Positions 8,021-43,391 of a stretch of 64,000 bases of DNA are shown one piece after another. The position numbers were made by a program, and so were the translations under genes. Below the pieces are notes generated by a model. It did no database searches. It saw only the letters and a program-made list of their open reading frames with translations, and was not told where the DNA came from. The DNA comes from Escherichia phage PSD2002. Each line of letters starts with the position of its first letter. The first letter of the stretch is position 1. The DNA lies in the sequence record OK335775.1; one strand, 5' to 3'.

Positions 8021-8536
8021 ATGGCTCATTTTAACGAATGTAGTGGTTTGATTGCAGGTGTTGATAAAGCTGAGGAAGCTTATGTTAGTGCAATTACCAA
8101 AGGTATCGACCCACTGCAGGTTATGCTTGATATGCAGAAATCTTTACAGGTTCGTCTGGCTAATGACCGTGATTATTGTTACCACCCGGATAAACTGGCT
8201 ACTGCAGGTGATGTTGTTGGATGGATGCGCGAACAGAAAGACTGCATCGATGATGAATTCCGTGAACTTCTGACTTCACTTGGTGAAATGTCTAAAGGTG
8301 AGAAAGATGCTTCTGCCGTCTGGAAAAAATGGAAGGCACGTTACCCAGAAGCTCAGTCTAAACGTATTGATGAAATGAGCCCTGAAGACCAGTTGGAAAT
8401 TAAATTTGAACTTGTGGACATAATCCATTTCGTATTAAACATGGTTACAGGTCTTGGTATGACTTCTGAAGAATTGTTCAAACTTTATTATCTGAAAAAT
8501 CTTGAAAATTTCAAACGTCAGGACAATGGGTATTAA
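8021..8536 (+). CDS. 56: Gp56 dCTPase/dUTPase (dCTP pyrophosphatase)
   Basis: 171 aa from ATG 8021 (ORF track starts at TTG 8003); MAHFNEC... and long identical blocks match T4 gp56 as recalled. Confidence 0.9.
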   Translation: MAHFNECSGLIAGVDKAEEAYVSAITKGIDPLQVMLDMQKSLQVRLANDRDYCYHPDKLATAGDVVGWMREQKDCIDDEFRELLTSLGEMSKGEKDASAVWKKWKARYPEAQSKRIDEMSPEDQLEIKFELVDIIHFVLNMVTGLGMTSEELFKLYYLKNLENFKRQDNGY

Positions 8537-10519: not shown

Positions 10520-11089
10520 ATGAACATCGAACAAAAATGTCTTTATCAAGACCGAATCAATTCCAAATTCTCAAAACACGAACAGAATCTTTTAGAAAAA
10601 TGTCTAGATGCTAAAAAGGACCCTAACTTCCATTACGACCTTGATAAGCTAGTTCGTAAGCATGTTACTTCAGCGGTTCCGGTAGAGCTTTATCGTGGGA
10701 TTACCGCTATGGAACTTGAGCAACTTGAAGTTCTTTCTGTTGGGTGCCAGTGGTCTCCTGGCCGGGTTACTTCTTTTAGTACACAATACTCACAGGCTCG
10801 TCAGTTCGCAGGGGCATGGGAATATGGAACCAGAACCATTTTAAGTCTCAGGAATGCACCGTTCATTTTCGACTACTATAACCATGCTATCGACCTTGTT
10901 CTTGCAGGGAATGTGGATGAGCTTGAAATAGATGAAACCCGTATTGACCTCTATGATATGGTTGAAACTGAATGCGAGTTCATGGTCTCCAGCCAATCAC
11001 GATTTGAGATTGTGGAAATCGAAACCGTCAAAAGAGACCCGTACGAAATCGAGTATAAAACAATTCATTTAAAAATGTTGGATTTTTAG
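10520..11089 (+). CDS. ADP-ribosyltransferase, ModA/ModB-like
   Basis: 189 aa; R-S-E class ART signature LYRG ... SFSTQ ... ECEF in correct order and spacing; located between soc and dda where T4 encodes modA/modB. Confidence 0.6.
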   Translation: MNIEQKCLYQDRINSKFSKHEQNLLEKCLDAKKDPNFHYDLDKLVRKHVTSAVPVELYRGITAMELEQLEVLSVGCQWSPGRVTSFSTQYSQARQFAGAWEYGTRTILSLRNAPFIFDYYNHAIDLVLAGNVDELEIDETRIDLYDMVETECEFMVSSQSRFEIVEIETVKRDPYEIEYKTIHLKMLDF

Positions 11090-11143
11090 TTTACAGGCAA
11101 GGAAGCTTGTGGTACTATCTTTCTACCAACTGAGGAGAATAAT

Positions 11144-11758
11144 ATGTTATATCCGAGCCATAAATTAGCAGAATTTATCAACAACGCTAAATGCGATGAT
11201 TTCCGTGAGAATACTCAGATAGAAATTGATGAGGTGTATTCTGATTTAGAACAGAGTACCCTCTGGCAGTGCATGGAAAATAAACCAGATTGTATCCAGG
11301 AAACTCTGAACAAAATCATCCGTAAGAACCTGACTTCTGTAGTGCCTGATAAGCTCTATCGCGGCATATCTAAAAAGACTATGAAGTATCTAGAGTCCAC
11401 AATGTGTGTAGGTGCCGTAATTGAATTCGACCGAGTAATGAGCTTCTCTAAAGACTTCAACGTGGCAAGGAATTTTGCATCTTATAACTTCTATGGAACA
11501 TTTAATATCTTTTGTATTAATGATGCGCCATTTGTGTACAATTATCAGGAAGAAATCTTTAAAATGTTATGTGCTGCGCCCCCTGAAGAGTTCCCAGGCG
11601 CATTTCCTGAATCTACCCGTGTAGCAAACTTACAATTAATCAATGATGAAGATGAGATGATGTTCCCTGCGGGAACTACGCTGCGCGTAGACTCTATTGA
11701 GAGAAATCCTAAATGGAATAATTACACCATTTGGAATCTTTCCGTTCTTTCTTACTGA
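11144..11758 (+). CDS. ADP-ribosyltransferase, ModA/ModB-like paralog
   Basis: 204 aa; LYRGI ... MSFSKD ... DEDEMMF; shares the NAPF(I/V) and LYRGI blocks with the upstream ORF. Confidence 0.6.
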   Translation: MLYPSHKLAEFINNAKCDDFRENTQIEIDEVYSDLEQSTLWQCMENKPDCIQETLNKIIRKNLTSVVPDKLYRGISKKTMKYLESTMCVGAVIEFDRVMSFSKDFNVARNFASYNFYGTFNIFCINDAPFVYNYQEEIFKMLCAAPPEEFPGAFPESTRVANLQLINDEDEMMFPAGTTLRVDSIERNPKWNNYTIWNLSVLSY

Positions 11759-11827
11759 ACCACCCGGTTTAATTGAAAGGCAAAGTCCTTGATTCATTAT
11801 ACCGTCGAAAATTTAAAGCAAAAAAGT

Positions 11828-11856
11828 GTTTACTTTATCGAGTAACTTGATACTAT
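11828..11856 (+). promoter_or_regulatory. Early promoter
   Basis: GTTTAC-N17-TACTAT. Confidence 0.55.
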
Positions 11857-11882
11857 AGACATATCAACCAATCGTCCGTAAG

Positions 11883-12629
11883 ATGAGAAATATCATGACT
11901 ACTGAATTTGAGTTAAAGGTTTACAAACGTCGCGAACACACTAAAGCCTCTGCCAAAAAACGTGGTAAGGACTTTAACCTGTCTAGTAAGTATGTTCGTA
12001 GACTTCTTGAACAAAAAGTGTGTGCATATTCAGGCGAACGTTTTGATGAGAATTCAGTTAGTGATAAGATTTCATTTGAACGTTTTAATAATGATATTGG
12101 TTATATCGAAGGTAATGTAATCCCAGTTAAAGTCAAGTACAATAGCTTACGTGCTGATTTGTCTTTAGATGAATTGAAACGTGCACAGACTCGTTTAGCG
12201 TCCCGTATTTCAGGTGGTTCTAAAATGCCTAATAGTTTTAAAGTTACCCCAGATAATTATTATAAAATTCGTAAAATAGTTAAAAATATTAAAGATACCC
12301 AAAGAGGTCTTAAAAAGCGTGAAAAACGTCTTAAGGACCTTATTAAATCAGGAGCTACTGATAAGACCCCTTCCGTCATCGCGGTTAAAGCTCGTATCCA
12401 TGGTTCTAATGCTTCAATTGGTACTATGGAAAAAGGTCTTAAATCTTTAATCGGTGGGCCTGATTGGCGCGTCAAGTTTAAATTGTCTGAAGCAGAAACG
12501 CGTTACGATATGTATGATAAAATTATTCAAGGTCTGGAGCGTTTAGAACACCTTTCTTTTATTGACAAAATGAAGTTGAAAAAAGGTCTTCCACTGAATG
12601 CTTCAATTTTTTCACTGATTAGAGGTTAA
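11883..12629 (+). CDS. Hypothetical protein (srd position)
   Basis: 248-aa ORF between the ART pair and dda; own early promoter at 11828-11856; identity assigned by position only. Confidence 0.45.
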   Translation: MRNIMTTEFELKVYKRREHTKASAKKRGKDFNLSSKYVRRLLEQKVCAYSGERFDENSVSDKISFERFNNDIGYIEGNVIPVKVKYNSLRADLSLDELKRAQTRLASRISGGSKMPNSFKVTPDNYYKIRKIVKNIKDTQRGLKKREKRLKDLIKSGATDKTPSVIAVKARIHGSNASIGTMEKGLKSLIGGPDWRVKFKLSEAETRYDMYDKIIQGLERLEHLSFIDKMKLKKGLPLNASIFSLIRG

Positions 12630-12630
12630 C

Positions 12631-12930
12631 GTGATGTACTATGCATACGTATTAGTTCACAAGGACAAAGATGGATATGAAATTCCATTAGAAGAGGCAG
12701 GTGAAGTGACTTTGTATTCGACAAAGATCGGAGCCGACACAGCTCTATCTGATTATGAAATGACAACAAAAAGATATCTTCGGCTTGGACGCCTTGAAAC
12801 GGTGTGCACACCTAGAAAATGGTGGTTTGATAAGCGGGAAACTAAAACAGTATATCCTACCGAAGAACGAGCCCGAGAACTTAAATTAGTTTTAGACACT
12901 TTATATGTTAAGCGAGTAAAATTGGCATGA
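12631..12930 (+). CDS. Hypothetical protein (dda.1 position)
   Basis: 99-aa ORF immediately upstream of dda. Confidence 0.45.
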   Translation: MMYYAYVLVHKDKDGYEIPLEEAGEVTLYSTKIGADTALSDYEMTTKRYLRLGRLETVCTPRKWWFDKRETKTVYPTEERARELKLVLDTLYVKRVKLA

Positions 12931-14258
12931 TTACATTTGAAGACTTGAACATCGGCCAGAGGACGGCCTTTAAAGAAATCATTGAAGCTATTAAACGACG
13001 TAAGGGTGAATGGATTACATTGAACGGTCCAGCCGGTACAGGTAAAACAACCCTTACCAAATTTATTCTTGACCATCTAGTCAAGAATGGTGAACTCGGA
13101 GTTATTTTGACTGCACCCACTCATGCGGCCAAAAAGGTATTGTCGAAACTCGCAGGTCAAGAAGCATCAACAATCCATAGAATCTTAAAGATTAACCCTA
13201 CCACATACGAAGACCAGGACATCTTTGAACAACGCGAAGCTCCTGACTTGAGCAAATGTAACGTTCTGGTTGTTGATGAAGGCTCGATGATTGACGGTAA
13301 GCTGTTTAAGATTATCGAATCTTCAGTGCCACCATGGTGTACTGTATTAGGGATTGGCGACAGAGCTCAGCTACAGCCAGTGGAACCTGGAAGTGATGGT
13401 AGTCCACAGTTGTCTCCGTTCTTTACCCATCCAAAAATCAAGCAATTGCATTTGACCGAAGTAATGCGTAGCAATGCTCCAATCATTGAGGTTGCTACTG
13501 AAATCCGTAATGGCGGATGGTTTAGAGATTGTGTATTCGAAGGACATGGTGTCCATGGTTTTAAATCTCAAACTGCTTTAAAAGATTTTATGATGAATTA
13601 TTTTTCCATTGTAAAAGACGCGGATGCCTTATTTGAAAATAGGATGTTTGCTTATACAAATAAATCGGTTGAAAAGCTGAATAGCATTATTCGTAAAAAG
13701 CTTTATGAAACCGATGCACCTTATATCAAGGGTGAAATCCTGGTGATGCAAGAGCCTTTTATGAAGGAACTTGAATACGATGGTAAGAAATTCTCTGAAA
13801 CCATTTTTAATAACGGTCAAATGGTTCGTATTCTGGATGTGAACCACACCTCATTGTTCTTGTCTGCTAAGGATGTAGGCACTCGACAAATGATTAATTA
13901 CTGGGACCTGCAAGTAGAATCTATCGATGAAGATGATGAGTATTATGTAGAGCATTTAAAGGTTATCGATGAGGCTTCGGTTGAGAAGTTCCATTATTTC
14001 TTGGCTAGGGTTGCTACTGAATACAAAGCCATGCGTGGAACGGGTAAGAAACCTAAGTGGGCTGATTTTTGGAAAGCTAAGAGAATGTTTACTAAGGTTC
14101 GAGCTCTTCCTGTGAGCACTGTTCATAAATCCCAAGGACTTACAGTCCAAAACAGTTTCATCTATACTCCATGCATGCATATGGCTGATGCGAATTTAGC
14201 TTCACAGCTGGCTTATGTTAGTATTACTCGTGCTCGTACTGACGCCTACTACGTTTGA
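12927..14258 (+). CDS. dda: Dda SF1 DNA helicase
   Basis: 443 aa; Walker A GPAGTGKTT, helicase motifs; strong match to T4 Dda as recalled. Confidence 0.95.
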   Translation: MITFEDLNIGQRTAFKEIIEAIKRRKGEWITLNGPAGTGKTTLTKFILDHLVKNGELGVILTAPTHAAKKVLSKLAGQEASTIHRILKINPTTYEDQDIFEQREAPDLSKCNVLVVDEGSMIDGKLFKIIESSVPPWCTVLGIGDRAQLQPVEPGSDGSPQLSPFFTHPKIKQLHLTEVMRSNAPIIEVATEIRNGGWFRDCVFEGHGVHGFKSQTALKDFMMNYFSIVKDADALFENRMFAYTNKSVEKLNSIIRKKLYETDAPYIKGEILVMQEPFMKELEYDGKKFSETIFNNGQMVRILDVNHTSLFLSAKDVGTRQMINYWDLQVESIDEDDEYYVEHLKVIDEASVEKFHYFLARVATEYKAMRGTGKKPKWADFWKAKRMFTKVRALPVSTVHKSQGLTVQNSFIYTPCMHMADANLASQLAYVSITRARTDAYYV

Positions 14259-14265
14259 GGAAAAT

Positions 14266-14505
14266 ATGATTAAAGTAACTAAAGACCAATTTTATAAGTT
14301 GAAATTCGAAACCGAACATATTATTAAAGTCAACCAAAATAATATCAGCATTAGGCAAAAGGCCCATACTGTCCTGAACTCTCTTAAAGAGATTGAAAGT
14401 GATTTTATTGCAGTACAAAATCTGATGGACGACAATATCTCTTCGGTTTATATTGAAGACTACACCGTTGGCCAAATCCGAGACCTTATGAGGTACGTTA
14501 AATGA
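14266..14505 (+). CDS. Hypothetical small protein
   Basis: ATG 14266 after GAGGAAAA; the ORF-track N-terminal extension overlaps the dda C-terminus. Confidence 0.4.
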   Translation: MIKVTKDQFYKLKFETEHIIKVNQNNISIRQKAHTVLNSLKEIESDFIAVQNLMDDNISSVYIEDYTVGQIRDLMRYVK

Positions 14506-15176
14506 AAGATATAATTATTGACTTTGAAACCTTTGCCACTACTCAAAATGCAGCGGTTATCGACCTAGCCGTAATTGCTTACGACCCTAATCCAGAGGTT
14601 GTAGAAACGTTTGAAGAGCTTACTCAACGAGGCCTTCGTATTAAATTTGACCTCGCTTCTCAACGTGATAAACGACTGTTTTCTAAAAGCACGTTGCAGT
14701 GGTGGAAAGAGCAAGGGCCTGAAGCGCGTAAAAACCTGGCTCCATCTGAAATTGATGTGTCCACTTCTATTGGTCTCGGTAATTTCCTGGAATACTGCCG
14801 TAAAAACGAAGTAGACCAATGGAAATCCCAGATGTGGTGTCGTGGAATGTCCTTTGACTTTCCTATCTTAGTCGACCTTATTCGTGATGCTTATCGTTCT
14901 GAAGGGGTTCCTGAGAATGAAATCGATACCAGTAAATTAGAACCGGTTAAATTCTGGAACCAACGTGACATCCGTACAGCTATTGAAGCATATTCACTAA
15001 CTCGTGGATTGAGCATGTGTCCTCTGCCTAACGGAACATTGAACGGCTTTGTTGCTCATGACTCCATCCATGACTGTGCTAAGGATATCTTGATGCTGAA
15101 ATATGCCCAACGTTATGCCTTAGGCCTGGAAGATGTCCCTGAGAATCCGGACCCATTAAGTATAAAAAATCGATAA
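14502..15176 (+). CDS. dexA: DexA exonuclease A (DEDD family)
   Basis: 224 aa; N-terminal IIDFETFA exonuclease motif; size and position as T4 dexA. Confidence 0.8.
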   Translation: MKDIIIDFETFATTQNAAVIDLAVIAYDPNPEVVETFEELTQRGLRIKFDLASQRDKRLFSKSTLQWWKEQGPEARKNLAPSEIDVSTSIGLGNFLEYCRKNEVDQWKSQMWCRGMSFDFPILVDLIRDAYRSEGVPENEIDTSKLEPVKFWNQRDIRTAIEAYSLTRGLSMCPLPNGTLNGFVAHDSIHDCAKDILMLKYAQRYALGLEDVPENPDPLSIKNR

Positions 15177-15180
15177 AAGT

Positions 15181-15209
15181 GTTTACTTCTCCTCATGACA
15201 TGTTATTAT
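15181..15209 (+). promoter_or_regulatory. Early promoter embedded in a 10-bp inverted repeat
   Basis: GTTTAC-N17-TATTAT; arms TCTCCTCATG (15188-15197) and CATGAGGAGA (15222-15231). Confidence 0.6.
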
Positions 15210-15236
15210 CTACCCTATCAACATGAGGAGAACAAA

Positions 15237-15746
15237 ATGAAAATTTATCGAGTGGAGTCATCGTTCAGTATCTTAGATAACAGCGATGTTATAGCAATCA
15301 CTCACCAACAGTGCCGCCAATTAACACCGTATAGAGGCTCGTTTGATGAATGGAGCGAAGGTTGGTTATTAGAAGTAGGTTTCGACAAACCTAATTTTAG
15401 ACACCACCATACCAATAATAAAAATATTCCGCTACCAGGTCAAGACAAGTTGTTGGTGGAAAATTCTAATAAAAGCATTAGAACTAAGTGGAACCAGCCT
15501 GATTATGAAGGCTGTGATGATTGTATTCCAGGTTGGTTTGTTAATCTCTACCATTTTGCTTTTGCCAGCGAGTATGATATGATGCGCTGGTTCACTCGTG
15601 AAGAGCGTGAAGAATTATCTTCTAAAGGATTCTATCTTGCTGTTTACGAAATCCCTGAAGATGAGGTTGTCATTGGTAGCCGTCAATTAATGTTCCGCAA
15701 ATCCTATGCCGAACTCGTAGATTTTATTGAAATGAGAAAATTATGA
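15237..15746 (+). CDS. Hypothetical protein
   Basis: ATG 15237 after GAGGAG; early promoter 15181-15209 with flanking inverted repeat. Confidence 0.45.
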   Translation: MKIYRVESSFSILDNSDVIAITHQQCRQLTPYRGSFDEWSEGWLLEVGFDKPNFRHHHTNNKNIPLPGQDKLLVENSNKSIRTKWNQPDYEGCDDCIPGWFVNLYHFAFASEYDMMRWFTREEREELSSKGFYLAVYEIPEDEVVIGSRQLMFRKSYAELVDFIEMRKL

Positions 15747-20765: not shown

Positions 20766-22976
20766 ATGATTATTGAAACCGAAAAAGAACAAATCATTGG
20801 TAATGGTGCTAAGTCCACAGGCTTTACTATTCAGGCATCGCCTAAGGTCTTTAAAATTTTGTCATCAGACCTTTATAGTAATAAAGTACGTGCCGTAGTT
20901 CGTGAACTAATTACCAACATGATTGATGCCCATATTCTAAATGGTAATAAAGAACGTTGGAAAGTACAGGTTCCTGGTAAACTGGACCCTCGCTTTGTAT
21001 GCCGTGACTTCGGGCCGGGTATGAGTGATTTCCAAATTCGTGGTGATGAAAACGAAACAGGTTTGTATAACTCTTATTTCGCGTCGTCCAAAACCGCTTC
21101 TAACGATTTCATCGGCGGCTTTGGCCTTGGTTCAAAATCTCCGTTCAGTTATACCGAAACGTTTAATATTACCTCATGGCACAATGGCGAAGTTCGCGGT
21201 TATGTAGCATATATGGATGGTGATGGCCCGCAGATTAAACCTACTTTCGTAGAACCTATGCAGCCAGGTGATAAAACAGGTATCGAAATCACGGTTCCTG
21301 TTGATGAAGAAGATTTCCGTAAGTTTGAAACTGAAGTTCGTTATATCATGCGGCCTTTCATTGGTCTTGGTGATGTAGACGGTGTTGAAGTTGATTATTT
21401 CCCTGAATTTGACGATTACCATCCTGTAACCACTACAAATTATGGCAGCTTCGAACGTTCAGGACTTTATGCAGTTTATGGTGGTATTGTTTATCCATTG
21501 GATTCCGCCTATAATAAAGGCACGTGGATGCGTACTCGCCATGATGTGGTTTATATTAAGTTCCCTATGGGTTCACTGGATATTGCTCCTTCTCGTGAAG
21601 TGATGTCTCTTGATAAACGTACGATGGAAAATATTGCAACCCGTATCGAAGCACTGGATGCAGTGGTCTTTAAAAACGATACACAGGAATGGGTTGAATC
21701 TGATAATCCACGCCATGTTTATCGTGACCTTTCTAACCTTGGTTACAGTGCTCGTGACTATCTTACCAAAAAAGGTGGAACTAGCCTGTTTACTACAGAA
21801 AAATTGACATATGAGAAATTATACCAGCGTTATACCCTTCAAAACGACCTTATTAATTTAGGTGTGGTTTACGAAGTCGTTTCAGACCCGCGTTTGAAAC
21901 GAATTAAGCCGAGTGGTAATACTTCTTCAGTAGCAGGACTTAGTAATTTATTAGGCATTAATAAGAAAGAAATCCATGTTGTTTATGATGATGAAAAAGG
22001 TCGTGTACCTCTGGTTCGAGGACTTTGGGCTCTAGCAATGGACAACAGTGCTTCGGCTAAGAAAATTGTTAAAGAGAACAATATTCCTAAATACGGAACT
22101 GACCTTATTTTTGTCGACCCAAATTCAATGTTGCAAATGCAACAACTTGAAAAGGTTAAAGAACTTTTTAAAGGTGACACAATTCATTTTTATAAAGTCT
22201 CTGAACTGAATAAAATTGTTAAGCCATGGATTCCGGTTACGGTTCGTTCGTCAGAACCGCGTCCTAAAACACCGAGTGCTTATCGTTGGTTCATTAAAGA
22301 CGGGCGCTGGCAACAAGAGACCATGTATTTGACTGCTGCCGAAGCAGAAGAAATTACAGGTTATGTTCTGTTTGGCAGTCGTTCTGATATTATGGGAATG
22401 GATGAAGCTTATGGTATCTTTGACATCAATACCACTACCATGTGTCGTATGGCTAATTTGATTGGTGCTACCGAATTCCATATCATTCGCCCTCAGATTG
22501 CCAAAAAGATTAAAAAGTTAGGCCAATGCGAATGCTTGATGGAAGCTACATTAGAAGCTTATGCTGAAGCCTTAGACGCGGTAGATGTTGATGACTACCT
22601 TGGTAGCAATACTCGAGCTCGGTATTACCTTGAAATCATTGCTAAGTTCCCTCAGCTTAATTTCATGACCAAGTATTTCAGTGATAAGCCGGTAACTGAA
22701 GCATATACTCGTCTGAGTAATTTCTATGATATATTCCGTTATATGAATTTCCATGGTTATATCACTGATGACAAGCTTTCCGTTATCAAGAAAATCTGTA
22801 ATACAACGTTTAATACGTTAACCAATAATGCTTCAAGCAACAATGATAAAATGACTGTACAGTTTGAATCTGATTACCATTTAGTTTCGGACTACATGTA
22901 TCGTCGTGGAACATCCATTACCGAGGCTTCTGTAGCTCAAATCGTTAAATTCATGAAAGCCGTGGAAGCGGCTTAA
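20766..22976 (+). CDS. rIIA: rIIA membrane-associated protein
   Basis: 736 aa; N-terminal ATPase-like region; strong match to T4 rIIA as recalled; followed by rIIB. Confidence 0.95.
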   Translation: MIIETEKEQIIGNGAKSTGFTIQASPKVFKILSSDLYSNKVRAVVRELITNMIDAHILNGNKERWKVQVPGKLDPRFVCRDFGPGMSDFQIRGDENETGLYNSYFASSKTASNDFIGGFGLGSKSPFSYTETFNITSWHNGEVRGYVAYMDGDGPQIKPTFVEPMQPGDKTGIEITVPVDEEDFRKFETEVRYIMRPFIGLGDVDGVEVDYFPEFDDYHPVTTTNYGSFERSGLYAVYGGIVYPLDSAYNKGTWMRTRHDVVYIKFPMGSLDIAPSREVMSLDKRTMENIATRIEALDAVVFKNDTQEWVESDNPRHVYRDLSNLGYSARDYLTKKGGTSLFTTEKLTYEKLYQRYTLQNDLINLGVVYEVVSDPRLKRIKPSGNTSSVAGLSNLLGINKKEIHVVYDDEKGRVPLVRGLWALAMDNSASAKKIVKENNIPKYGTDLIFVDPNSMLQMQQLEKVKELFKGDTIHFYKVSELNKIVKPWIPVTVRSSEPRPKTPSAYRWFIKDGRWQQETMYLTAAEAEEITGYVLFGSRSDIMGMDEAYGIFDINTTTMCRMANLIGATEFHIIRPQIAKKIKKLGQCECLMEATLEAYAEALDAVDVDDYLGSNTRARYYLEIIAKFPQLNFMTKYFSDKPVTEAYTRLSNFYDIFRYMNFHGYITDDKLSVIKKICNTTFNTLTNNASSNNDKMTVQFESDYHLVSDYMYRRGTSITEASVAQIVKFMKAVEAA

Positions 22977-22990
22977 TCTAAGGAAATATT

Positions 22991-23956
22991 ATGTACAATA
23001 TTAAATGTCTGGCTAAATCTGAACAAGAGAAAGTAGTTTCCCTCTATAAATCCGGTAATTATACTCAGCAAGAACTAGCTGACTGGTATGGTGTTTCGGT
23101 TGATACCATTCGTAAAGTTCTGAAAAATGATGAAGAAGCTAAACGTTCTCAAGTGGTTATTACCGGAAATGTTACGGTAACAGTTCCTAACCTGCTGGTT
23201 GTTCCTGTTGAAGCCACTATTGGCGGTTCTCGTCCTGAAATTATTTGGAATGCCAGTTCTAAATTCGTATCCATCACTGAAGGTCGTACAGTATGGAACA
23301 CTACTAATAAGAATAAACATTTCGATGCCATCGTACAGGCTCTTAAAGAATCCCGTTTCGATGATGCAATTAAACTGATTTCTATTAAAGAAGCTGTTAA
23401 AGCATTTGTTAAAGGTAACGTTCGTATTGAAGGTGGACGTCTGGTTTACCAAGGCATTGAATTGCGTTCAGGGCTGATTGACCGTATTATCACTTCAATG
23501 GAAAATGGTGAAGACTTCGAATTCTACCTGCCGTTCCTTGAAAACCTGTTAGAAAACCCAAGCGAAAAAGCTGTACAGCGTCTGTTCGACTTCCTGGTGG
23601 CAAACGACATCAAAATTACTGAAGATGGTCACTTTATTACGTGGAAGGTGGTTAACTCCGATTACACCGACTGCCGTACCGGTACGTTTGATAACTCACC
23701 AGGCAAACCGGTTAAAATGCCTCGTTCTCGTGTAAATGATGACGACGAAGTAACCTGTTCAAGTGGTCTGCACGTTTGCTCTCGTAGTTATATCAGTCAT
23801 TTTGGTAACTCAAGCTGTAAAGTGGTTTCATGTAAAGTTAACCCACGTGATGTTGTTAGTATTCCGGTCGATTACGGTGATGCTAAAATGCGTGTATGTT
23901 ATTATGAAGTTCTAGAAGACGTCACCGAACAGTTCGCAAACGAATACAAATACTAA
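22991..23956 (+). CDS. rIIB: rIIB protein
   Basis: 321 aa directly after rIIA; size and position as T4 rIIB. Confidence 0.9.
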   Translation: MYNIKCLAKSEQEKVVSLYKSGNYTQQELADWYGVSVDTIRKVLKNDEEAKRSQVVITGNVTVTVPNLLVVPVEATIGGSRPEIIWNASSKFVSITEGRTVWNTTNKNKHFDAIVQALKESRFDDAIKLISIKEAVKAFVKGNVRIEGGRLVYQGIELRSGLIDRIITSMENGEDFEFYLPFLENLLENPSEKAVQRLFDFLVANDIKITEDGHFITWKVVNSDYTDCRTGTFDNSPGKPVKMPRSRVNDDDEVTCSSGLHVCSRSYISHFGNSSCKVVSCKVNPRDVVSIPVDYGDAKMRVCYYEVLEDVTEQFANEYKY

Positions 23957-23965
23957 ATCAATAAC

Positions 23966-23981
23966 GGAGGCTTCGGCCTCC
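23966..23981 (+). other. GC hairpin with TTCG loop after rIIB (no U-tract)
   Basis: GGAGGC-TTCG-GCCTCC directly abutting the SD of the next ORF; similar hairpins at 27029-27046, 52620-52633 and 62345-62362. Confidence 0.5.
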
Positions 23982-23993
23982 TAATGAGGAATT

Positions 23994-24191
23994 ATGTTAG
24001 GTTACCAAGCACGTGTAGTTGAAGAATACGACCAGTTGGTTCTTAAAATTAACGCACTAGAAACCTTTATTGAAGGTGGTGTTTTTGAAACTCTTGATAT
24101 CCGTCAACAAGGGTTACTGATTGCACAACTGGACGCGATGGGTGCTTATGCTCATTGTTTAGAGGTTCGTATTTCTTATTTCGGTGAGTAA
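23994..24191 (+). CDS. Hypothetical small protein
   Basis: 65-aa ORF after GC hairpin and SD. Confidence 0.4.
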   Translation: MLGYQARVVEEYDQLVLKINALETFIEGGVFETLDIRQQGLLIAQLDAMGAYAHCLEVRISYFGE

Positions 24192-24192
24192 A

Positions 24193-24492
24193 ATGATTAA
24201 TTATATGAATGTCGGTGAACGCGATATCAAGATTTCTAATTTGCGTGGGTTCCATAAAGCAGGTACTGTTTATTGCGCTAAGCTCGTTAAACACCCGGGT
24301 GATGTTCATTACGCTTTTCTAGAATGCGATGAGGTGGTTGAAGGCGAGTTTCCTTTAGTAGATTCTGATACTTTAGAGCCTAACGACCGAATTTATTATG
24401 GCGAACTTCATATTCGAGGCATTTATGGTGAAGACGAACCCGGGGCTACTCCGATTGGCAGCGATGCCGACATTTACCCTGAAGACATCTGA
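24193..24492 (+). CDS. Hypothetical protein
   Basis: ATG 24193, 1 nt after the previous stop. Confidence 0.4.
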   Translation: MINYMNVGERDIKISNLRGFHKAGTVYCAKLVKHPGDVHYAFLECDEVVEGEFPLVDSDTLEPNDRIYYGELHIRGIYGEDEPGATPIGSDADIYPEDI

Positions 24493-24505
24493 TTTGACAG
24501 GTGAA

Positions 24506-24982
24506 ATGAAGGTTAAGATTAAGGATACCGTACTGTATTCCTTAAGCCAAGACCCGTCCCAAGATAAGAAAGAAGTATTGACTCGGTGTGTCATTGCAAC
24601 GTATGCCGAGTATATGGTTGCTGATTGGTTGAAAGGATATGTTAATAGTGGTCTAGAAGACCATGACGACCCTTATACCTATGCATGGGATGTTTTAGCT
24701 CATCCTATGTATTGTGGACTCCGTGTAGAGGTTAAGACCCATCAATCAGATTCTAAGTGGATTTCCTGTACTACAGGATACTCTGGTGACTTCCCTTATG
24801 GAACAGGGATTAACCTGGGTCCGCTCTTGAATCATAAAGTTGCAGACTGTATAATCATATTCGACACTTCAGTAAATGAGGCAGGCGATGTCCTGTTCAC
24901 TCCTAAGTTCTCTGGTGACAGAGAAGCCATCACAAAGCTAGTCCGTAAGAGTAATTACAACGGCTGGTATCTCGCCTTATAA
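24506..24982 (+). CDS. Hypothetical protein with D...EVK nuclease-like motif (denB position)
   Basis: 158 aa from ATG 24506 (SD AGGTGA); motif YAWDVLAH...LRVEVKTH resembles a PD-(D/E)xK core; lies where T4 has denB. Confidence 0.35.
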   Translation: MKVKIKDTVLYSLSQDPSQDKKEVLTRCVIATYAEYMVADWLKGYVNSGLEDHDDPYTYAWDVLAHPMYCGLRVEVKTHQSDSKWISCTTGYSGDFPYGTGINLGPLLNHKVADCIIIFDTSVNEAGDVLFTPKFSGDREAITKLVRKSNYNGWYLAL

Positions 24983-25058
24983 ATTTTTAAAATAAGTATT
25001 TACATACGCCATGGATGGTGTTACTATCTTCCTATCAACTACACGAGAGGAAAATATT

Positions 25059-25286
25059 ATGACTTCTATTACTTATGTTAAAGCAATCAATCGTAAAATC
25101 GAAGAATATAAATTTGAGAACGGTAAAGTGTTTCACAAGCTTACCAATATTAAAACGGGTAATGTTCAAAAAGATTGGACTGAAGTTACCACTCCTACAG
25201 TAATTAATCTTTACGGTTCTATCGAAAAGTATTGGGAATTTTTAGTAGGTTGGGCTAAACAGCATCCAAAACATTCTGTTGCTTAA
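25059..25286 (+). CDS. Hypothetical small protein
   Basis: ATG 25059 after GAGAGGAAAA; own promoter cassette. Confidence 0.4.
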   Translation: MTSITYVKAINRKIEEYKFENGKVFHKLTNIKTGNVQKDWTEVTTPTVINLYGSIEKYWEFLVGWAKQHPKHSVA

Positions 25287-25342
25287 GTTATAATGCCACG
25301 GATGGTGTTACTATCTTCCTATCAACTAATGAGGAGAACAAA

Positions 25343-25609
25343 ATGGATATCAAATTATATTACGCTAAACACAAAGTTACAGGTATGGTTGTTGCCGCTA
25401 TGTATGATGCATCAGGTGAAGGTGATGATGTTACTACAGAGTTATCTCTTTCTGAATGTAAATTTCTCCGTCCTTTAATCGCATCAAAGGAAGATTTACA
25501 AAAACTTATCGACGGTAAACTGGATAATGTTGACGGCATAGATATTCTTTATGACCTTCGTACTGCATTGCACAGGGGATTAATTGAGATAAAAGAGGTG
25601 GTGTTTTGA
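25343..25609 (+). CDS. Hypothetical small protein
   Basis: 88-aa ORF after GAGGAGAA; promoter cassette near-identical to the upstream one. Confidence 0.4.
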   Translation: MDIKLYYAKHKVTGMVVAAMYDASGEGDDVTTELSLSECKFLRPLIASKEDLQKLIDGKLDNVDGIDILYDLRTALHRGLIEIKEVVF

Positions 25610-25699
25610 GTAGCAAAATGTGGTGCCTTATTTGGATGGCCTGTATCCCAGTGATTTGCGTATGTTTTAGTTTATTGTTGTGGAAATTGGCATAAATCA

Positions 25700-25728
25700 G
25701 TATACATCTCCGTTAATCATGATACTAT
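25700..25728 (+). promoter_or_regulatory. Early promoter
   Basis: GTATAC-N17-TACTAT, with inverted repeat CATCTCC/GGAGATG. Confidence 0.5.
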
Positions 25729-25754
25729 AGACCTATCAACTAATGGAGATGATT

Positions 25755-25865
25755 ATGAAAAACTTACTTAAAGCAATTTGGAACATGTTTGTGTTGTTAA
25801 TGGTATTGAGCATTTTCCCAATCGTTTTTATGATTGACCATGTACGTGTATTCTTTAACTTCTGA
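25755..25865 (+). CDS. Hypothetical small membrane peptide
   Basis: 36-aa hydrophobic ORF after promoter 25700-25728. Confidence 0.3.
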   Translation: MKNLLKAIWNMFVLLMVLSIFPIVFMIDHVRVFFNF

Positions 25866-25875
25866 GGAAAATATT

Positions 25876-26088
25876 ATGAAACTTTTTAAAGATGTTGCAG
25901 TTGGCGAGAGCTTTGTATTACATAATGGTCAACAACTGATTCGTATTTCTCCTTTGCAAGTTGGGACCGAATTACAACCTGTTAATGCTACAGACCTTTA
26001 TGATTCAACTAAGCGCTTTTGTGTAGGACCCAGTGTACAGTGTCTTACCGTTGATGAACTGATGGCTATTTCTGTTGACGCTGAATAA
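25876..26088 (+). CDS. Hypothetical small protein
   Basis: ATG 25876 after GAGGAAAA. Confidence 0.4.
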   Translation: MKLFKDVAVGESFVLHNGQQLIRISPLQVGTELQPVNATDLYDSTKRFCVGPSVQCLTVDELMAISVDAE

Positions 26089-26098
26089 GGAAAATATT

Positions 26099-26443
26099 AT
26101 GTCTAAATTATTTTTTGGTAATCGCAACATTATGTTCTTTAAACAGATTAGCATGTCAGAAACATTTGATTTAAGTTATTCAGGCGACACAAAAGCTGTT
26201 AACCTTAAAAATTTAGCGTCTGCAGAATTTGCATTCTATCAGGACCCTGAAACTGGTTTCTACAAATTTATTAAGTTCCGCATGACTATGGACCGTGATT
26301 ATCGTGACGTTTATTATACAAGTTATGAAAGTGTTATCAATGCAATTCGTGAAGCTTATGGATTGGATTCATTATCTCTTGACCGCCTGTATAATGCAAG
26401 CCTTTACACCAGCGGATTTATTTTAGAACAGCTACAAAAATAG
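26099..26443 (+). CDS. Hypothetical protein
   Basis: 114-aa ORF after AAGGAAAA. Confidence 0.4.
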   Translation: MSKLFFGNRNIMFFKQISMSETFDLSYSGDTKAVNLKNLASAEFAFYQDPETGFYKFIKFRMTMDRDYRDVYYTSYESVINAIREAYGLDSLSLDRLYNASLYTSGFILEQLQK

Positions 26444-26471
26444 TTTACAACCTCGAGAATCATGTTATAAT
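26443..26471 (+). promoter_or_regulatory. Early promoter upstream of ndd
   Basis: GTTTAC-N17-TATAAT. Confidence 0.6.
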
Positions 26472-26520
26472 GGTTCTCGTTGACTGGATAACAAAACATT
26501 AATCTACTGAGGAAATTGAT

Positions 26521-26970
26521 ATGAATACTTATATGACTCGCCGTAACGTTCTGTCTGCTGGTGCTACTACTGTTGCTTATGTTAAGAACGGTGAATACCA
26601 AAATGGTAAACCTTCTAAAGAAATCTCTGCTCAGCCAGGCTTCTACTTCTTTGTTAAAGGCGGAGCTGATTCTCGTGTCGTAGCGGCTCGTTTTTATGTC
26701 GGTAATCAACGTTCGGCCCAAGGGCTCGACGGTATCATGGCTAACATTCGTAAGAAACGTTCTCAATCAGCTCGCACTATGGCAGTGAACGGTGTTGTGT
26801 ATGAAGTTCTTTATGTACCGGCTTCTAAGATGAAACCCCTGACTACAGGTTTTGGTAAGGGTCAAATTGCAATGGCTTTCACTCGTAATCATAGTTCCGA
26901 CCTCCAGACACTGGAAGAAATGAACCGTATGTTGGCTGATAACTTTAAATTCATCCTGCAGGCTTACTAA
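26521..26970 (+). CDS. ndd: Ndd nucleoid disruption protein
   Basis: 149 aa; C-terminal LTTGFGKGQ...[15 protein letters not shown] block matches T4 Ndd as recalled; located between rIIB and 52. Confidence 0.8.
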
Positions 26971-27057
26971 TGAGTAATTTCCATAACGAGCATGTGATGC
27001 AGTTCTATCGTAACAATCTTAAAACTAAAGGCGTCTTCGGACGCTAATGAGGAAAAT

Positions 27058-27219
27058 ATGGTTATCCTAGTTTTTATTGAACTTATTATGGCTATAGTCT
27101 GTTCAGTTTGCTTCTTTTTAGGTGTGTGGGCCCCTGGTCCGATATTCTTAAGTTTTCTGCTTATTGGTTGGGTTCTTTCTACTTTTGTCGGTTTACTTAA
27201 GACGATTAAAAATGATTAA
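27058..27219 (+). CDS. Small membrane protein
   Basis: 53-aa hydrophobic ORF after GAGGAAAA. Confidence 0.35.
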   Translation: MVILVFIELIMAIVCSVCFFLGVWAPGPIFLSFLLIGWVLSTFVGLLKTIKND

Positions 27220-27352
27220 TAAAATCCTGGGCTACTCGTTAGCCCTTGCTGCTTTATTAGTAGCGCTGTATTACGGAGTAATGTTCGGACTTATCCAAGT
27301 TGTGCTTTTTATTTCCGATGTTATTATGGCTATTCATTCACTAGTATGGTAA
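27212..27352 (+). CDS. Small membrane protein (ac-like position)
   Basis: 46-aa hydrophobic ORF immediately upstream of gene 52. Confidence 0.35.
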   Translation: MINKILGYSLALAALLVALYYGVMFGLIQVVLFISDVIMAIHSLVW

Positions 27353-27356
27353 AATT

Positions 27357-28736
27357 ATGGCTGATGTAATTGATACCCTTTTTAAACAGGCTTTAGATGT
27401 TTACGATGATTCTTTCACTCGTCGTGACTTAAAAAGTATTATCGACAACGAAGCATTGGCTTATGCAATGTATACTGTCGAAAACCGAGCCATTCCAAAT
27501 ATGATTGATGGCTTTAAACCTGTACAACGTTTTGTAGTGGCTCGTTGTCTTGATATGGCTCGTGGTAATAAAGAAAAATTCCACAAACTGGCTTCTATCG
27601 CTGGTGGTGTAGCCGACCTCGGATATCACCACGGTGAAGGTTCTGCTCAGGAAGCAGGGGCTTTGATGGCTAACACATGGAACAACAACTATCCATTGTT
27701 AGACGGCCAAGGTAACTTCGGTTCTCGATTGGTTCAAAAGGCTGCAGCCTCTCGTTATATTTTTGCTCGTATCGGAAGTAACTTTGCAAAAGTTTATAAG
27801 GACACAGAATATGCTCCGGTTCATGCGGATGTCGAACATAAGCCACCGGCTTTTTATCTGCCTATTATTCCTACTGTTCTTCTTAATGGCGTTTCCGGTA
27901 TTGCAACTGGTTATGCAACTAATATTCTTCCTCATAGTTTTGATTCTGTTAAGAAAGCTGTATTGCAAGTTCTTCAGGAAAAACGTGTAACCAAGCCTAA
28001 AGTGGCTTATCCTGAATTCCGTGGTGAAGTTGTTGAGATTGAGCCTGGTAGTTATGAGATTCGCGGAACGTATAAGTTCACATCCCGAACCCAAATGCAT
28101 ATCACGGAAATTCCATACAAATACGACCGTGAAACATATGTGGCTAAGGTATTAGACCCTCTGGAAGACAAAGGGTATATCACATATGATGACGATTGTG
28201 ATGAGAACGGTTTCGGCTTCAAGGTTAAGATTCGTAAAGAATATGAATTGCCCACTGATGAAGATAAGAAACACGAAAAACTCATGAAGGACTTCGGGTT
28301 AATTGAACGTCGTTCACAAAACCTGACTGTCATTAATGAGAAAGGTAAACTTAAGGTTTACGAAGATGCAGTTGAACTGATTCGTGATTTCGTTGAGGTC
28401 CGTAAGACCTTTGTACAGAAACGTATTGATGGTAAAATCATCGAAACCGAAGAAGCTTTCAAACTGGCACTGGCTAAAGCCACATTTATCAAAGATGTTA
28501 TTGATGGAATTGTAGTTATCCAAGGTAAGACTCGTAAGGTTTTAACCGAAGAATTGGCTGGTAATAAAGTCTACGGCGGATATGCCGATAAACTGGTTGC
28601 AATGAACATTTTCCATATCACTTCTGACGAAGCTAAGAAACTGGCTTTGGAAGCCAAGGCTAAGAAGGAAGAGCATCAATACTGGAAAACCACTGATGTT
28701 GTAACTGAGTATGTTAAAGATTTGGAGGCTCTATGA
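27357..28736 (+). CDS. 52: DNA topoisomerase II medium (GyrA-like) subunit
   Basis: 459 aa; GyrA N-terminal breakage-reunion motifs; matches T4 gp52. Confidence 0.95.
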   Translation: MADVIDTLFKQALDVYDDSFTRRDLKSIIDNEALAYAMYTVENRAIPNMIDGFKPVQRFVVARCLDMARGNKEKFHKLASIAGGVADLGYHHGEGSAQEAGALMANTWNNNYPLLDGQGNFGSRLVQKAAASRYIFARIGSNFAKVYKDTEYAPVHADVEHKPPAFYLPIIPTVLLNGVSGIATGYATNILPHSFDSVKKAVLQVLQEKRVTKPKVAYPEFRGEVVEIEPGSYEIRGTYKFTSRTQMHITEIPYKYDRETYVAKVLDPLEDKGYITYDDDCDENGFGFKVKIRKEYELPTDEDKKHEKLMKDFGLIERRSQNLTVINEKGKLKVYEDAVELIRDFVEVRKTFVQKRIDGKIIETEEAFKLALAKATFIKDVIDGIVVIQGKTRKVLTEELAGNKVYGGYADKLVAMNIFHITSDEAKKLALEAKAKKEEHQYWKTTDVVTEYVKDLEAL

Positions 28737-38276: not shown

Positions 38277-41200
38277 TTATTCAATCCACTCAAACTTAAC
38301 GGATTTAGTGACCGGGTCAGGAATAATACGAACGTTACCAATACGTAACCAATCAAGGATTGTAATGTTACCCATTGTAGCGTTATCAGCAGGCAATGCA
38401 CCAACCTCTTCCGCAGAAGGAGGGTTATCTGCCGTATAGACCATAGAGAACGTAGTCCATGCGTTTTTATTTTTCTGCCAGGTACGTGTATAACGAATAG
38501 TACCACCATTCAGTCCTGTAGGATAGCACACCCAATCCTGATAACATGAATCCAATGTATTACCAAACTGAGTTAACGTACCAGGATATTTAACTTCCTT
38601 ATCACGAACAGAATAATCAAACCAAGTACCACGTAATTTCTGACCTGATGTACCGAGAACCTCGTCACCAAAACTACCGTCTTCGTTACGATAACGAATA
38701 GCCGGAGAACTAAATGCACCCGTTTCTGTCAACCAACCAGAAGCATTCCATATCTCATCAGAAACACCGGCAGGTTTAGTTTGGACCGTATCAATATTAA
38801 CCTGACGTTTAGTTTTCATCGTCCAATAACCAGGGAACAGGTTAAATGTAGCCGAATCATTGATATCGACAGACCAGAAGCCAACGGTTTCTGCAGTAGG
38901 GGCCTGCGATGCTAATGTAGGTTTAACACCAACAGAGCGGACGTATTTTTGAGCAACCAAACCATTATTTGCCGATACCTGTCCGGTGGAAACGATAGTA
39001 CCTGAAGTAGTTACGTTTTGCAATGAAGACAGAGCAGAAGCATTTAATGTAGTTGTAGAAACACCGTTAGAAGTGGTTATACCTGTGATATTAGCATTCT
39101 TAGAAATACTAATGGAACCACTATTAACAGCAAAGTCACCAGTCGTATTAAAGGTCCAGTAGAAAGATTCTAAAGAACCCGGCGATGGAAGATAATGTAT
39201 TTTAAAATCACGAGTTCCGTCGTTTACAGTGCCTAAAGAGAATGTACCTTGCCCTAAACGTTGTTTAACAATAGGATGGAACTTGGCATCCGGGGTCGAA
39301 TTTATCTCGGCAAAAATCGGAGCTAAAGTATCACCTTGAGAGTTCCAAGTACCTGCACCAGATTGGGGTCCTACAAATTTAATAGATTTACCTGAGCTAA
39401 CAGATACATCATTTTTAAAAGTAGAATTTCCAGTTACTTCTAGAGAACCTAAAATAGTGTTGCCGGTAATATTAGCCGTACTAGAAGACACTAGAGGAGC
39501 GGCCAGGTTCAATTGTTTTGTCAACGTTAAAGAACCATTAACCGTTTGGTCAACGTCTCTACGAATGAACTGGAGTGAATCTAGGCCATCCAATTTCTCG
39601 GAGTTCACAGCCGTAGCATTTATAGGTAAAAAGTTCTGTAAAGTTTTATTCATCTCGTAAGATGAAACCGCATAACCTGTTTTAGGGTAGTTAGCTGCGT
39701 TCAGAACAGTATCGTCGTTCTCATAAAGGCCTGTACCTGAGTTAAATTTAACACCAGAACCGGTAACTTTATTTCCTGAATAGGTTAAAGCACCTTCGGT
39801 TAATTTAACAAATCCACGACGAAGTGCAGTAGCTTCCCAAGTAGTTTCGGTCTGTACTACATATTTTAAACCAGAAGGGCTTACAGCCAAAACTTTAGAA
39901 GTTCCTGCGGTTGTTTCGGTATTGGTTGCAACACGAATAATACCTTCAGAACTTTCAGTAGATTTTTTAGAGTGTAATTTCAAAGGAGTGATGATGGTTT
40001 TGTCATCAGTACCAACGTTGACTTCGGTCTGGGTCGCCAGGCGAGCAGTACCACGTTGAGTCTCATTTGCTTCTCTAATATCTAGTGTATAATGGTTCCA
40101 TAAGGTTCCTGATTCAACCAAACCACTGGCTGCTGAGACAGAAGTTCTAGCAGTATCATTAAATCTTGTTTTAATTTTCAACGGAGTTGAAATAACATTA
40201 TCTAACGTACCTGCATCAAATTCTACCTGTGTTGCAATTCTAGCAATACCAGTCAATCCTTCCATAGCTTTCCTATCATTTAACGTCTTAGGCGTTACCG
40301 CACGAGTATAATCTGTTCCAGTATCAGTTTCCTGTTGCGTAGCAATTTCAATTAACCCTGTACGAGTATCAAGAGCCACACGAGCATGTAATGTTTCCGG
40401 AGAAACAGCACTGTTGGCAAATCCACTTGCCGATTGGCCTGCGTTAACTTCAGATTGGTTAGAAAGATATACCGTACCCTGTTGAACTTGGGTAGCTTTA
40501 TACTGGTCAAGAGCTTTAGGAGAAATAACCAAATTGCCTACGTTCTTATTATAAACGTTAGTACCTACGGTGTCCCTAGCAGTCGCAGGAGTGGTTCCTA
40601 CAGTAGAGGTATATGTTACAATACCTGAAAGACTTTCCGAACCCTGGCGCGCTTGTAGCTTCTTAGGAGTGATGATTGTAGTATCATCTATACCAGCATC
40701 AGTTTCAACTTGCGTAGCAATTTCAGCAACACCACGACGAGTTTCGGTTGCAGTACGTTCGTTTAATTTCTTAGGAGAAATAATCAAATCGTCCTGGAAT
40801 GCGAAGGTTGTGTCCTGGTTCACCTGAGCAGTAGTAGCAATACGAGCAATACCACGACGAGATTCAGTCGCCACACGATTAGCTAAAGTCTGCGGAGTAA
40901 TTGCCAGTTCTTTTTCAGGATTATTTTCATGGTCAACGTTTGCTTGAGTCTGGGACGCAAGGGCAATAACACCTAAACGAGCACGAGTTAAATCATCTTT
41001 AGAATCCACACGTTCTATAGTAGGAACGTTCTGGGCAACAACCCAATATTTGCCACCTGTAGTGGTGTCTTCGATATAACTCAGTTCAATAACCGGAGTA
41101 TAACTTATATCGCCATTAAAGGTCAGTACATCATTCAATACCCATTCGGTTTCTGGTGGATATTCTGAACGTTTAGGGAATTGAAGCAATTGAACAGAAG

Positions 41201-42326: not shown

Positions 42327-42358
42327 TTTATTTCCTTTTCGTTTTCAGGGTATAGAAC

Positions 42359-42366
42359 TATTTATA
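42359..42366 (-). promoter_or_regulatory. Late promoter TATAAATA for gene 34
   Basis: TATAAATA on - strand about 33 nt upstream of the gene 34 ATG. Confidence 0.6.
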
Positions 42367-42373
42367 GCAAGAT

Positions 42374-42402
42374 GTTTACTTCCTTAAAACCCGTGATATA
42401 AT
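42374..42402 (+). promoter_or_regulatory. Early promoter for rnh
   Basis: GTTTAC-N17-TATAAT; divergent from the gene 34 late promoter. Confidence 0.6.
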
Positions 42403-42433
42403 GGACCTCTCAACTACTTGAACAGAGGTTCAT

Positions 42434-43381
42434 ATGAACGATTTAGATTTTTTACTTCCTGAAGAAGACCAACAAAAAGATGGATTTTTACTCCTAGATT
42501 TCAGCCAAATCATTATGGCTGCAGCTTTCCAAGAGTTTGGTGAGAATGCTGGATTTCCTAAAGTAACTACAGCAATGCTTCGACACCTCGTGTTGAATTC
42601 AATTAAGAAAAATATTAAAGACTTTAAAAAACAGGGGTACAACCAACTGGTTATTTGTGTTGATAACTCTAAATCAGGTTATTGGCGTCGTCGCTATTCA
42701 CCTTATTATAAGAAAAACCGTGCTAAGGCTCGTGAAGAATCATTATTTGATTGGGAAGGCTTATTTACGGCAATGCATATTATTGTTGATGAGCTTGAAC
42801 ATAACATGCCTTATATTGTTATGAACATCGATACTGTCGAGGCCGATGACCATATTGCTGTTTTAACCCGTATCCTTACGGCTTTAGGCCATCCTGTTAT
42901 GATCGGTTCTTCGGATGGTGACTTTACCCAACTTCATAAATTCCCTGGGGTAAAACAATGGTCTCCAATGCAGAAAAAATTCGTCAAAACAAAATCTGGC
43001 GATTCATTATTGGATTGTGTAACCAAGGTTGTTAAAGGCGACCGTAAAGATAACGTTGCGAGTATTAAAGTTCGTGGTGATTACTGGTTGACAATGGTTG
43101 AAGGCGAACGTACTCCTAGCACTCGTGCCAAGGAACTTGAAGCAATTGCTCTTAATTATTACGACCATGATATAATTAAAACACTTCTTACTGAAGAACA
43201 ATATGAACGTTTCTGTGAAAACCAAATCTTAATTGATATGGACTTTATTCCAGATGATATTGTTGCTTTAATTACTGAAAGATATAATACGTATAACAAA
43301 CCTTCGAAATCTAAAGTTTATCCTTATTTCGTTAAATCTGGTTTGTCTAAACTAACCGCTACAGTAGCTGATTTTTATTAA
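42434..43381 (+). CDS. rnh: RNase H (5'-3' exonuclease, FEN-like)
   Basis: 315 aa; LLDFSQI, SGYWRR..YYKKNR.KAREES, EADDHIAVL, SSDGDFTQLHK motifs match T4 RNase H. Confidence 0.9.
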   Translation: MNDLDFLLPEEDQQKDGFLLLDFSQIIMAAAFQEFGENAGFPKVTTAMLRHLVLNSIKKNIKDFKKQGYNQLVICVDNSKSGYWRRRYSPYYKKNRAKAREESLFDWEGLFTAMHIIVDELEHNMPYIVMNIDTVEADDHIAVLTRILTALGHPVMIGSSDGDFTQLHKFPGVKQWSPMQKKFVKTKSGDSLLDCVTKVVKGDRKDNVASIKVRGDYWLTMVEGERTPSTRAKELEAIALNYYDHDIIKTLLTEEQYERFCENQILIDMDFIPDDIVALITERYNTYNKPSKSKVYPYFVKSGLSKLTATVADFY

Positions 43382-43391
43382 GGTGAATATA

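Follow-up and report, generated by a model that had tools for sequence, protein, structure and literature searches.

Does the open reading frame that lies at the denB position of a T4-like coliphage encode endonuclease IV, and where does its coding sequence begin? These questions are raised by a stretch of 64,000 nucleotides from Escherichia phage PSD2002 (OK335775.1), referred to here as the window, in whose coordinates positions are given unless another record is named. A sequence-only reading of the window had noted a 158-residue frame in the place where T4 encodes endonuclease IV (DenB), recognized in it the arrangement of acidic and basic residues typical of PD-(D/E)xK nucleases, and proposed that it was either DenB in a divergent form or another nuclease.

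The biochemistry of T4 endonuclease IV was published in 2006-2007 (PMC1635256, PMC2175332). The enzyme has 185 residues (21.1 kDa), is active with Mg2+, Mn2+, Co2+ or Ca2+, and acts specifically on single-stranded DNA, which it cuts 5' of dC, favouring TCA. It shows no activity towards DNA containing glucosylated hydroxymethylcytosine (hmC), and its expression kills E. coli (PMC1635256). Polarised cleavage depends critically on Ser176 (PMC2175332). A 2023 preprint traced the triggering of retron Ec67 (Eco2) to DenB, and the T2 enzyme cleaves the msDNA of retron Eco2 upstream of dC; the T2 escape mutations G71R (described as 'near the active site', and abolishing dC cleavage), G180E and W181* fall at conserved residues (PMC12916289, NSMB 2026). 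The PD-(D/E)xK motif of DenB was reported in 2025 on the basis of a structural alignment (PMC12405507).

Here we present a computational analysis of the PSD2002 gene. We conclude, with a probability of about 0.9, that it is a denB orthologue encoding endonuclease IV with a PD-(D/E)xK fold, and that it most likely starts at position 24425.

Results

The frame is open on the plus strand from an ATG at 24506 to a TAA at 24980-24982, and comprises 158 codons and the stop. Family scans, taken with the annotation of phages Bp7 and T4, gave the gene order rIIA-rIIB-denB.1-(DUF7418)-denB-...-ndd-52, which is the order in T4, the DUF7418 gene aside (Table 1). The denB position claimed for the frame was thus borne out, with rIIA, rIIB and denB.1 lying upstream and ndd and gene 52 downstream. 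The family of the denB.1 homologue, PF21825, is common to T4-like and crAss-like phages, and its function is unknown.

Across positions 23900-27400 the nearest relative was phage QL01 (97.9%), and Bp7 matched at 97.1%. Our comparisons place PSD2002 in the genus Dhakavirus, as a T4-like coliphage of the QL01/Bp7 group. The interval between denB and ndd (25000-26520) contains several small open reading frames. It is longer than in Bp7, which is shorter by ∼290 nt between these genes, and QL01 matches better there, which marks the interval as variable and given over to small early genes. A scan for promoters and terminators around denB returned five sites, against 4.5 expected from shuffled sequences, and thus no excess. 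One promoter-like site (TTTACA-17-TACTAT, with TG upstream) lies at 24999-25027, between the denB stop codon and the next small frame; such sites are no commoner in the region than in shuffles, and we list it as a lead only.

Table 1. Coordinates of the denB gene of PSD2002, its candidate functional residues and its genomic surroundings.
Feature	Position	Strand	Remarks
gp56 dCTPase	8021-8533		100% identical to Bp7
rIIA	20766-22976		phrog_612, E = 1e-231
rIIB	22991-23956		
denB.1 homologue (synteny marker)	23994-24191	+	PF21825 'crAss001_48 related protein', E = 8e-20; named denB.1 in Bp7 and T4
DUF7418 / phrog_2237 gene, function unknown	24193-24492	+	PF24193, E = 3e-41; Bp7 annotation EpBp7_0139
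Shine-Dalgarno GAGG	24416-24419	+	Precedes the 24425 ATG by 5 nt
denB (endonuclease IV), full-length reading, 185 aa and stop	24425-24982	+	First 27 aa alignable with the N-terminus of T4 DenB
Out-of-frame overlap of DUF7418 3' end and denB 5' end, 68 nt	24425-24492	+	
158-aa frame of the sequence-only reading	24506-24982	+	Starts from Met28, internal to the full-length protein; equals Bp7 annotation EpBp7_0140
Glu62 (Glu35 of the 158-aa frame)	24608-24610	+	Invariant acidic residue, helix 48-68; candidate metal ligand
Gly71	24635-24637	+	Invariant; equivalent of inactivating T2 DenB G71R (PMC12916289)
Asp89 (Asp62 of the 158-aa frame)	24689-24691	+	'D' of PD-(D/E)xK, immediately before strand 90-91; invariant
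Glu102-Val103-Lys104 (E75-V-K77 of the 158-aa frame)	24728-24736	+	'(D/E)xK' element inside strand 100-106; invariant
Ser176	24950-24952	+	Invariant; T4 counterpart crucial for polarised dC-specific cleavage (PMC2175332)
Gly180-Trp181	24962-24967	+	Equivalents of T2 DenB escape mutations G180E and W181*; predicted DNA-binding surface (PMC12916289)
Small ORFs between denB and ndd	25056-25286; 25343-25609; 25834-26088; 26075-26443		First, no family; second, phrog_2390
ndd	26521-26970		Pfam Phage_T4_Ndd, E = 8e-69
Gene 52, topoisomerase II medium subunit	27357-28736		
denB as annotated in Bp7 (locus L001)	HQ829472 69399-69875		
denB as annotated in QL01 (locus L008)	NC_028847 168528-169046		
denB as annotated in CLB_P2 (locus L006)	OL770107 88541-89098		

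We then compared the protein with known families. It was assigned to phrog_1360 ('DenB-like DNA endonuclease IV') with E = 3.2e-80. A tblastn search of 50,697 phage records matched 1089 of them, 1086 over 80% or more of the query; the 158-residue frame was 100% identical to denB of Bp7 and ∼72% identical to T4 denB over residues 1-158 (E = 4e-75). In its 185-residue form the protein shared 71% identity with T4-type DenB, with zero gaps. All homologues carried a precomputed PF26887.1 tag. When the 158- and 194-residue readings were scanned locally against Pfam-A and NCBIfam there were no matches, the PF26887 model evidently being absent from the copy of Pfam scanned. The DenB family proved narrow: searched exhaustively with a profile, 1.84 billion representative proteins yielded only 27 clusters, of which 15 had E <= 1e-30. 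PSD2002 DenB is not particularly divergent from that of T4. Of the two identities proposed beforehand, DenB therefore stands, given the phrog_1360 match and the identity to T4 DenB, while the qualifier 'divergent' and the option of a different nuclease do not.

The start of the gene required closer attention, as near-identical Dhakaviruses are annotated with denB proteins of 158 (Bp7), 172 (QL01) and 185 residues (CLB_P2). No stop interrupts the frame from 24398 on, and it contains in-frame ATGs at 24398, 24425, 24464 and 24506. The 27 residues ahead of the Met encoded at 24506, MVKTNPGLLRLAAMPTFTLKTSDLTGE, gave a gap-free alignment with the T4 DenB N-terminus, MQKTNPGLQRLFQIPTFTLSNSNLTSE. The start lies well upstream of position 28 in 48 of 50 homologues, and the Met aligned with 24425 is the start in 39 of the 50. 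When the raw DNA of 47 IMG/VR loci was searched with tblastn, the match began at residue 1 in most; an ATG was found at, or no more than 3 codons from, the position homologous to 24425 in all 46 loci analysed, preceded by a Shine-Dalgarno-like purine motif in 41. In seven annotated loci GAGG, AGAGG or AAGGA is kept ahead of this long start. The AlphaFold2 model predicted an ordered N-terminus, with a helix at residues 6-12, a strand at 17-19, and pLDDT values of 78, 94 and 90 in the first three blocks of ten residues. Moreover, recombinant T4 enzyme made from the long start, with a sequence beginning MQKTNPG, was active (PMC1635256). Taken together, these comparisons indicate that denB most likely starts at 24425, 81 nt upstream of 24506, and encodes 185 residues as in T4. 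The frame and stop codon of the 158-residue reading hold, but its 5' end was probably placed 81 nt too far downstream, resulting in an N-terminally truncated protein. The two remaining ATGs were rejected: neither 24464 (172 residues; QL01 RefSeq, cluster P0001) nor 24398 (194 residues; absent in Bp7) is aligned with the conserved first Met of the family.

Two other readings of the 5' end were weighed. The 158-residue protein could be the sole product, the in-frame sequence upstream then amounting to no more than the end of the DUF7418 gene in a different reading frame. GenBank does give 158 residues in Bp7 and in Tequatrovirus CM8, a partial Shine-Dalgarno sequence, AGGTGA, directly precedes the 24506 ATG, and initiation there avoids the 68-nt overlap between the two genes. 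However, no conserved Shine-Dalgarno sequence was found ahead of the short start in T4, a20 or CM8, and Met28 occurs in only 8 of the 50 homologues, nearly all of which begin upstream. The N-terminal motif N-P-G-L/W-x-R-L... is kept in lineages in which the overlap is lacking or limited to 17 nt (loci L033, L046, L050 and L042-L049); on this ground we rejected the explanation that the motif is conserved through DUF7418 coding. The predicted order of the N-terminus and the activity of the T4 enzyme made from the long start also count against a sole short product, which we consider quite improbable. Slightly better placed, though still unlikely, is the production of both forms, the 185-residue protein from 24425 and a variant with altered activity or regulation from the internal ATG at 24506. 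Met28 is common to Dhakavirus, Tequatrovirus and Mosigvirus, and in Dhakavirus it is accompanied by a nearby purine-rich stretch; internal starts are used in some other genes of T4. Arguing against this are the lack of family-wide conservation of Met28 and the Shine-Dalgarno-like element at 24506, which has a spacing of only ∼2 nt and is absent in T4 and a20, and two DenB species are not reported in the studies of the T4 and T2 enzymes or in related work (PMC2175332, PMC12916289, PMC12405507, PMC1635256). We thus retain 24425 as the most likely start.

We next considered the motif, for which an Asp followed about 15 residues later by Glu-Val-Lys in a hydrophobic, strand-like context had been described. 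The translation contains YAWDVLAHPMYCGLRVEVKTH, in which Asp62 is followed 13 residues on by Glu75-Val-Lys77 (numbering of the 158-residue frame) within a hydrophobic stretch, so that the pattern and its context are present with a somewhat shorter spacing. Hereafter residues are numbered in the 185-residue form, from which the numbers of the 158-residue frame follow by subtracting 27. As a bare pattern, the arrangement was not above chance. The loose form D-x(8-30)-[DE]-x-K was found in 41 of the 58 long plus-strand frames of the window and in 75% of shuffles of the PSD2002 protein; a stricter form requiring the hydrophobic context was found in 7 of the 58 and in 7% of shuffles. The motif is meaningful only through its invariance among homologues and its position in the predicted fold.

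Conservation of the motif residues was clear. E62, G71, D89, R100, E102, V103, K104, S176 and G180 were invariant in the 50-member alignment. Of the six most remote relatives returned by the exhaustive profile search (19-27% identity), five kept E62, D89 and E102-x-K104; the sixth, cluster P0072, is without the segment that bears these residues. G71, S176, G180 and W181, the residues supported by work on the T4 and T2 enzymes, are all present in the PSD2002 protein.

An AlphaFold2 model built on the 50-member alignment had a mean pLDDT of 90.5 and a pTM of 0.87. It placed E62 on a helix spanning residues 48-68, D89 just before a strand at 90-91, and E102-V-K104 within a strand at 100-106. The predicted placement of D89, E102 and K104 is canonical for a restriction-endonuclease-like core, with the Asp at the start of strand 2 and the (D/E)-x-K on strand 3, and the model contains the core alpha-beta-beta-beta-alpha-beta fold. 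From their secondary-structure positions, we infer that E62, D89, E102 and K104 would cluster. A Foldseek search of viral predicted structures (BFVD) returned DenB homologues first and remote phage proteins after them, including entries labelled 'Restriction endonuclease' and 'PD(D/E)XK endonuclease domain-containing protein', and one distant relative (P0073) had a sub-threshold Pfam match to Hjc. Foldseek against the PDB gave nothing significant, and searches of PDB sequences with phmmer and with a 50-sequence profile (hmmsearch) gave only noise, the best E-values of 0.09-0.11 belonging to unrelated proteins such as LSP1/PIL1. The model and the BFVD matches point to a restriction-endonuclease-like fold, in line with the nuclease fold that had been anticipated. 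Neither of the two outcomes named beforehand as counting against the proposal, a lack of any predicted nuclease fold and motif residues that vary among homologues, was obtained.

The possibility that the D...ExK pattern is coincidental, and that DenB has some other fold or active site, appears very improbable. The residues are invariant down to ∼20% identity, and their predicted locations (helix 1, strand 2, strand 3) match those of the canonical core; G71R, which adjoins the site, inactivates the enzyme (PMC12916289); and the PD-(D/E)xK assignment was published independently (PMC12405507). Together with the invariant motif residues and their predicted placement, that assignment upholds the proposal of a PD-(D/E)xK-type nuclease. 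The chance that a different nuclease merely fills the denB slot as a non-orthologous replacement is lower still. Gene content between rIIB and ndd differs among T4-like phages, which would leave room for such a replacement, but the full-length identity to T4 DenB and the phrog_1360 match rule it out.

With the start at 24425, the 5' end of denB overlaps the 3' end of the DUF7418 gene out of frame (Table 1). The overlaps annotated in Mosigvirus a20, Jiaodavirus 15882-1, Dhakavirus CLB_P2 and Tequatrovirus pSe_SNUABM_01 measure 65-68 nt, a length that recurs in 35 of 46 IMG/VR loci, the range across lineages being 17-80 nt. DUF7418 adjoins denB in most of the loci examined, and the pair is kept in ∼700 phage records and in 34-36 of the 46 IMG/VR DenB loci. 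T4 is without DUF7418, yet keeps the DenB N-terminus. Our literature search returned no paper mentioning DUF7418. In Aeromonas phage PS49 (PP212877; positions 1209-1781 of locus L057) a DenB orthologue with 65% identity over 185 residues is labelled 'hypothetical protein'; it directly follows a DUF7418 gene, with a 4-nt overlap as annotated.

Discussion

The results support the presence in PSD2002 of an orthologue of T4 endonuclease IV that shares its slot after rIIB and denB.1, aligns with it without gaps at ∼72% identity and, if started at 24425, has the same length. G71, S176, G180, W181, E62, D89, E102 and K104 are all shared with the T4 protein, and ∼28% of residues differ. In PSD2002 and most of the subfamily, unlike T4, the 5' end of denB overlaps DUF7418, a gene absent from T4. 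Within Dhakavirus, DenB of Bp7, QL01 and CLB_P2 is 94-100% identical and encoded at the same locus, and the annotation alone differs. We detected no sequence similarity between PSD2002 DenB and type II PD-(D/E)xK restriction endonucleases (R.SwaI, NhoI, MspI, PvuII, EcoRV) or Hjc resolvases. DenB is a compact, single-domain protein that, by orthology with the T4 enzyme, would read a single base (dC) in single-stranded DNA and not a duplex site. In discriminating against cytosine-containing DNA, DenB has a partner in T4 endonuclease II, DenA (PMC1635256; PMC8056088). DenA is unrelated to DenB, has 136 residues, and acts on double-stranded DNA; it is needed for host DNA breakdown, whereas DenB is not (PMC1635256).

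We propose that PSD2002 DenB acts as a small, single-domain, Mg2+-dependent nuclease with a PD-(D/E)xK (restriction-endonuclease-like) fold. The site that binds metal and activates water would be made up of Glu62 (first long helix), Asp89 (beginning of the second core strand), and Glu102 and Lys104 (third strand); these catalytic roles are assigned by us from conservation and predicted position. In the papers on DenB consulted here, point mutants of E62, D89, E102 or K104 are not reported; G71R, adjoining the site, is the only one reported as inactive. Ser176 and the C-terminal G180-W181 region may help to position single-stranded DNA. By orthology with T4 endonuclease IV, the enzyme would cleave single-stranded DNA at the phosphodiester bond 5' of deoxycytidine, preferably in TCA-like contexts, and such cleavage would block the replication of cytosine-containing DNA, whether that of the host or unmodified phage DNA.

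Replacement of its cytosines by modified hydroxymethylcytosine would protect the DNA of the phage itself, and we infer this form of self-protection for PSD2002. The window encodes a gp56 dCTPase (Table 1). It begins inside a phrog_3891 gene (3-566), followed by uvsX (647-1810), and the region corresponding to Bp7 40677-45388 (10678-15389 of locus L009) lies just upstream of it. In Bp7 this region carries a gene of the thymidylate-synthase family at the gene-42 position, together with genes for an NTP-transferase/kinase fusion (567 aa), a phosphoheptose-isomerase-like protein and a thymidylate-kinase-like protein, all annotated as 'hypothetical'. It holds sugar-nucleotide genes where T4 has gene 42 and beta-gt, which encodes the glucosyltransferase. 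Judged by its position, the gene-42-like gene of Bp7 would encode a dCMP hydroxymethylase and not a thymidylate synthase. The gene set suggests a modification of hmC with a sugar other than glucose, and is consistent with a genome of sugar-decorated hmC.

The conserved overlap of DUF7418 and denB may mark a functional two-gene module, through translational coupling or through modulation of the toxic DenB by the DUF7418 protein, which could affect, for example, its timing or targeting, or shield it from defences that sense DenB, such as retron Eco2. We offer this as a speculative idea, with the odds well against it. What the analysis shows is the conserved linkage and overlap, and the fact that T4 manages without DUF7418 argues against an essential partnership.

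The PD-(D/E)xK assignment of DenB being published (PMC12405507), the suggestion of this nuclease type from the PSD2002 sequence was correct and not new. Both the DenB identity and the motif were already known; the probable upstream start is the only new point, and the overlapping DUF7418-denB pair is the only remaining one with some potential for novelty. For annotation, near-identical Dhakaviruses carry three different denB starts and some orthologues are labelled 'hypothetical protein'; the comparison favours a protein of 185 residues and an overlap with DUF7418. DenB is a determinant of the fate of host DNA. Since all residues hit by the published T2 escape mutations, missense and nonsense, (G71, G180 and W181) are kept, PSD2002 can be expected to be a DenB-positive phage of the type that triggers Eco2, which is relevant to work on phage defence and phage therapy.
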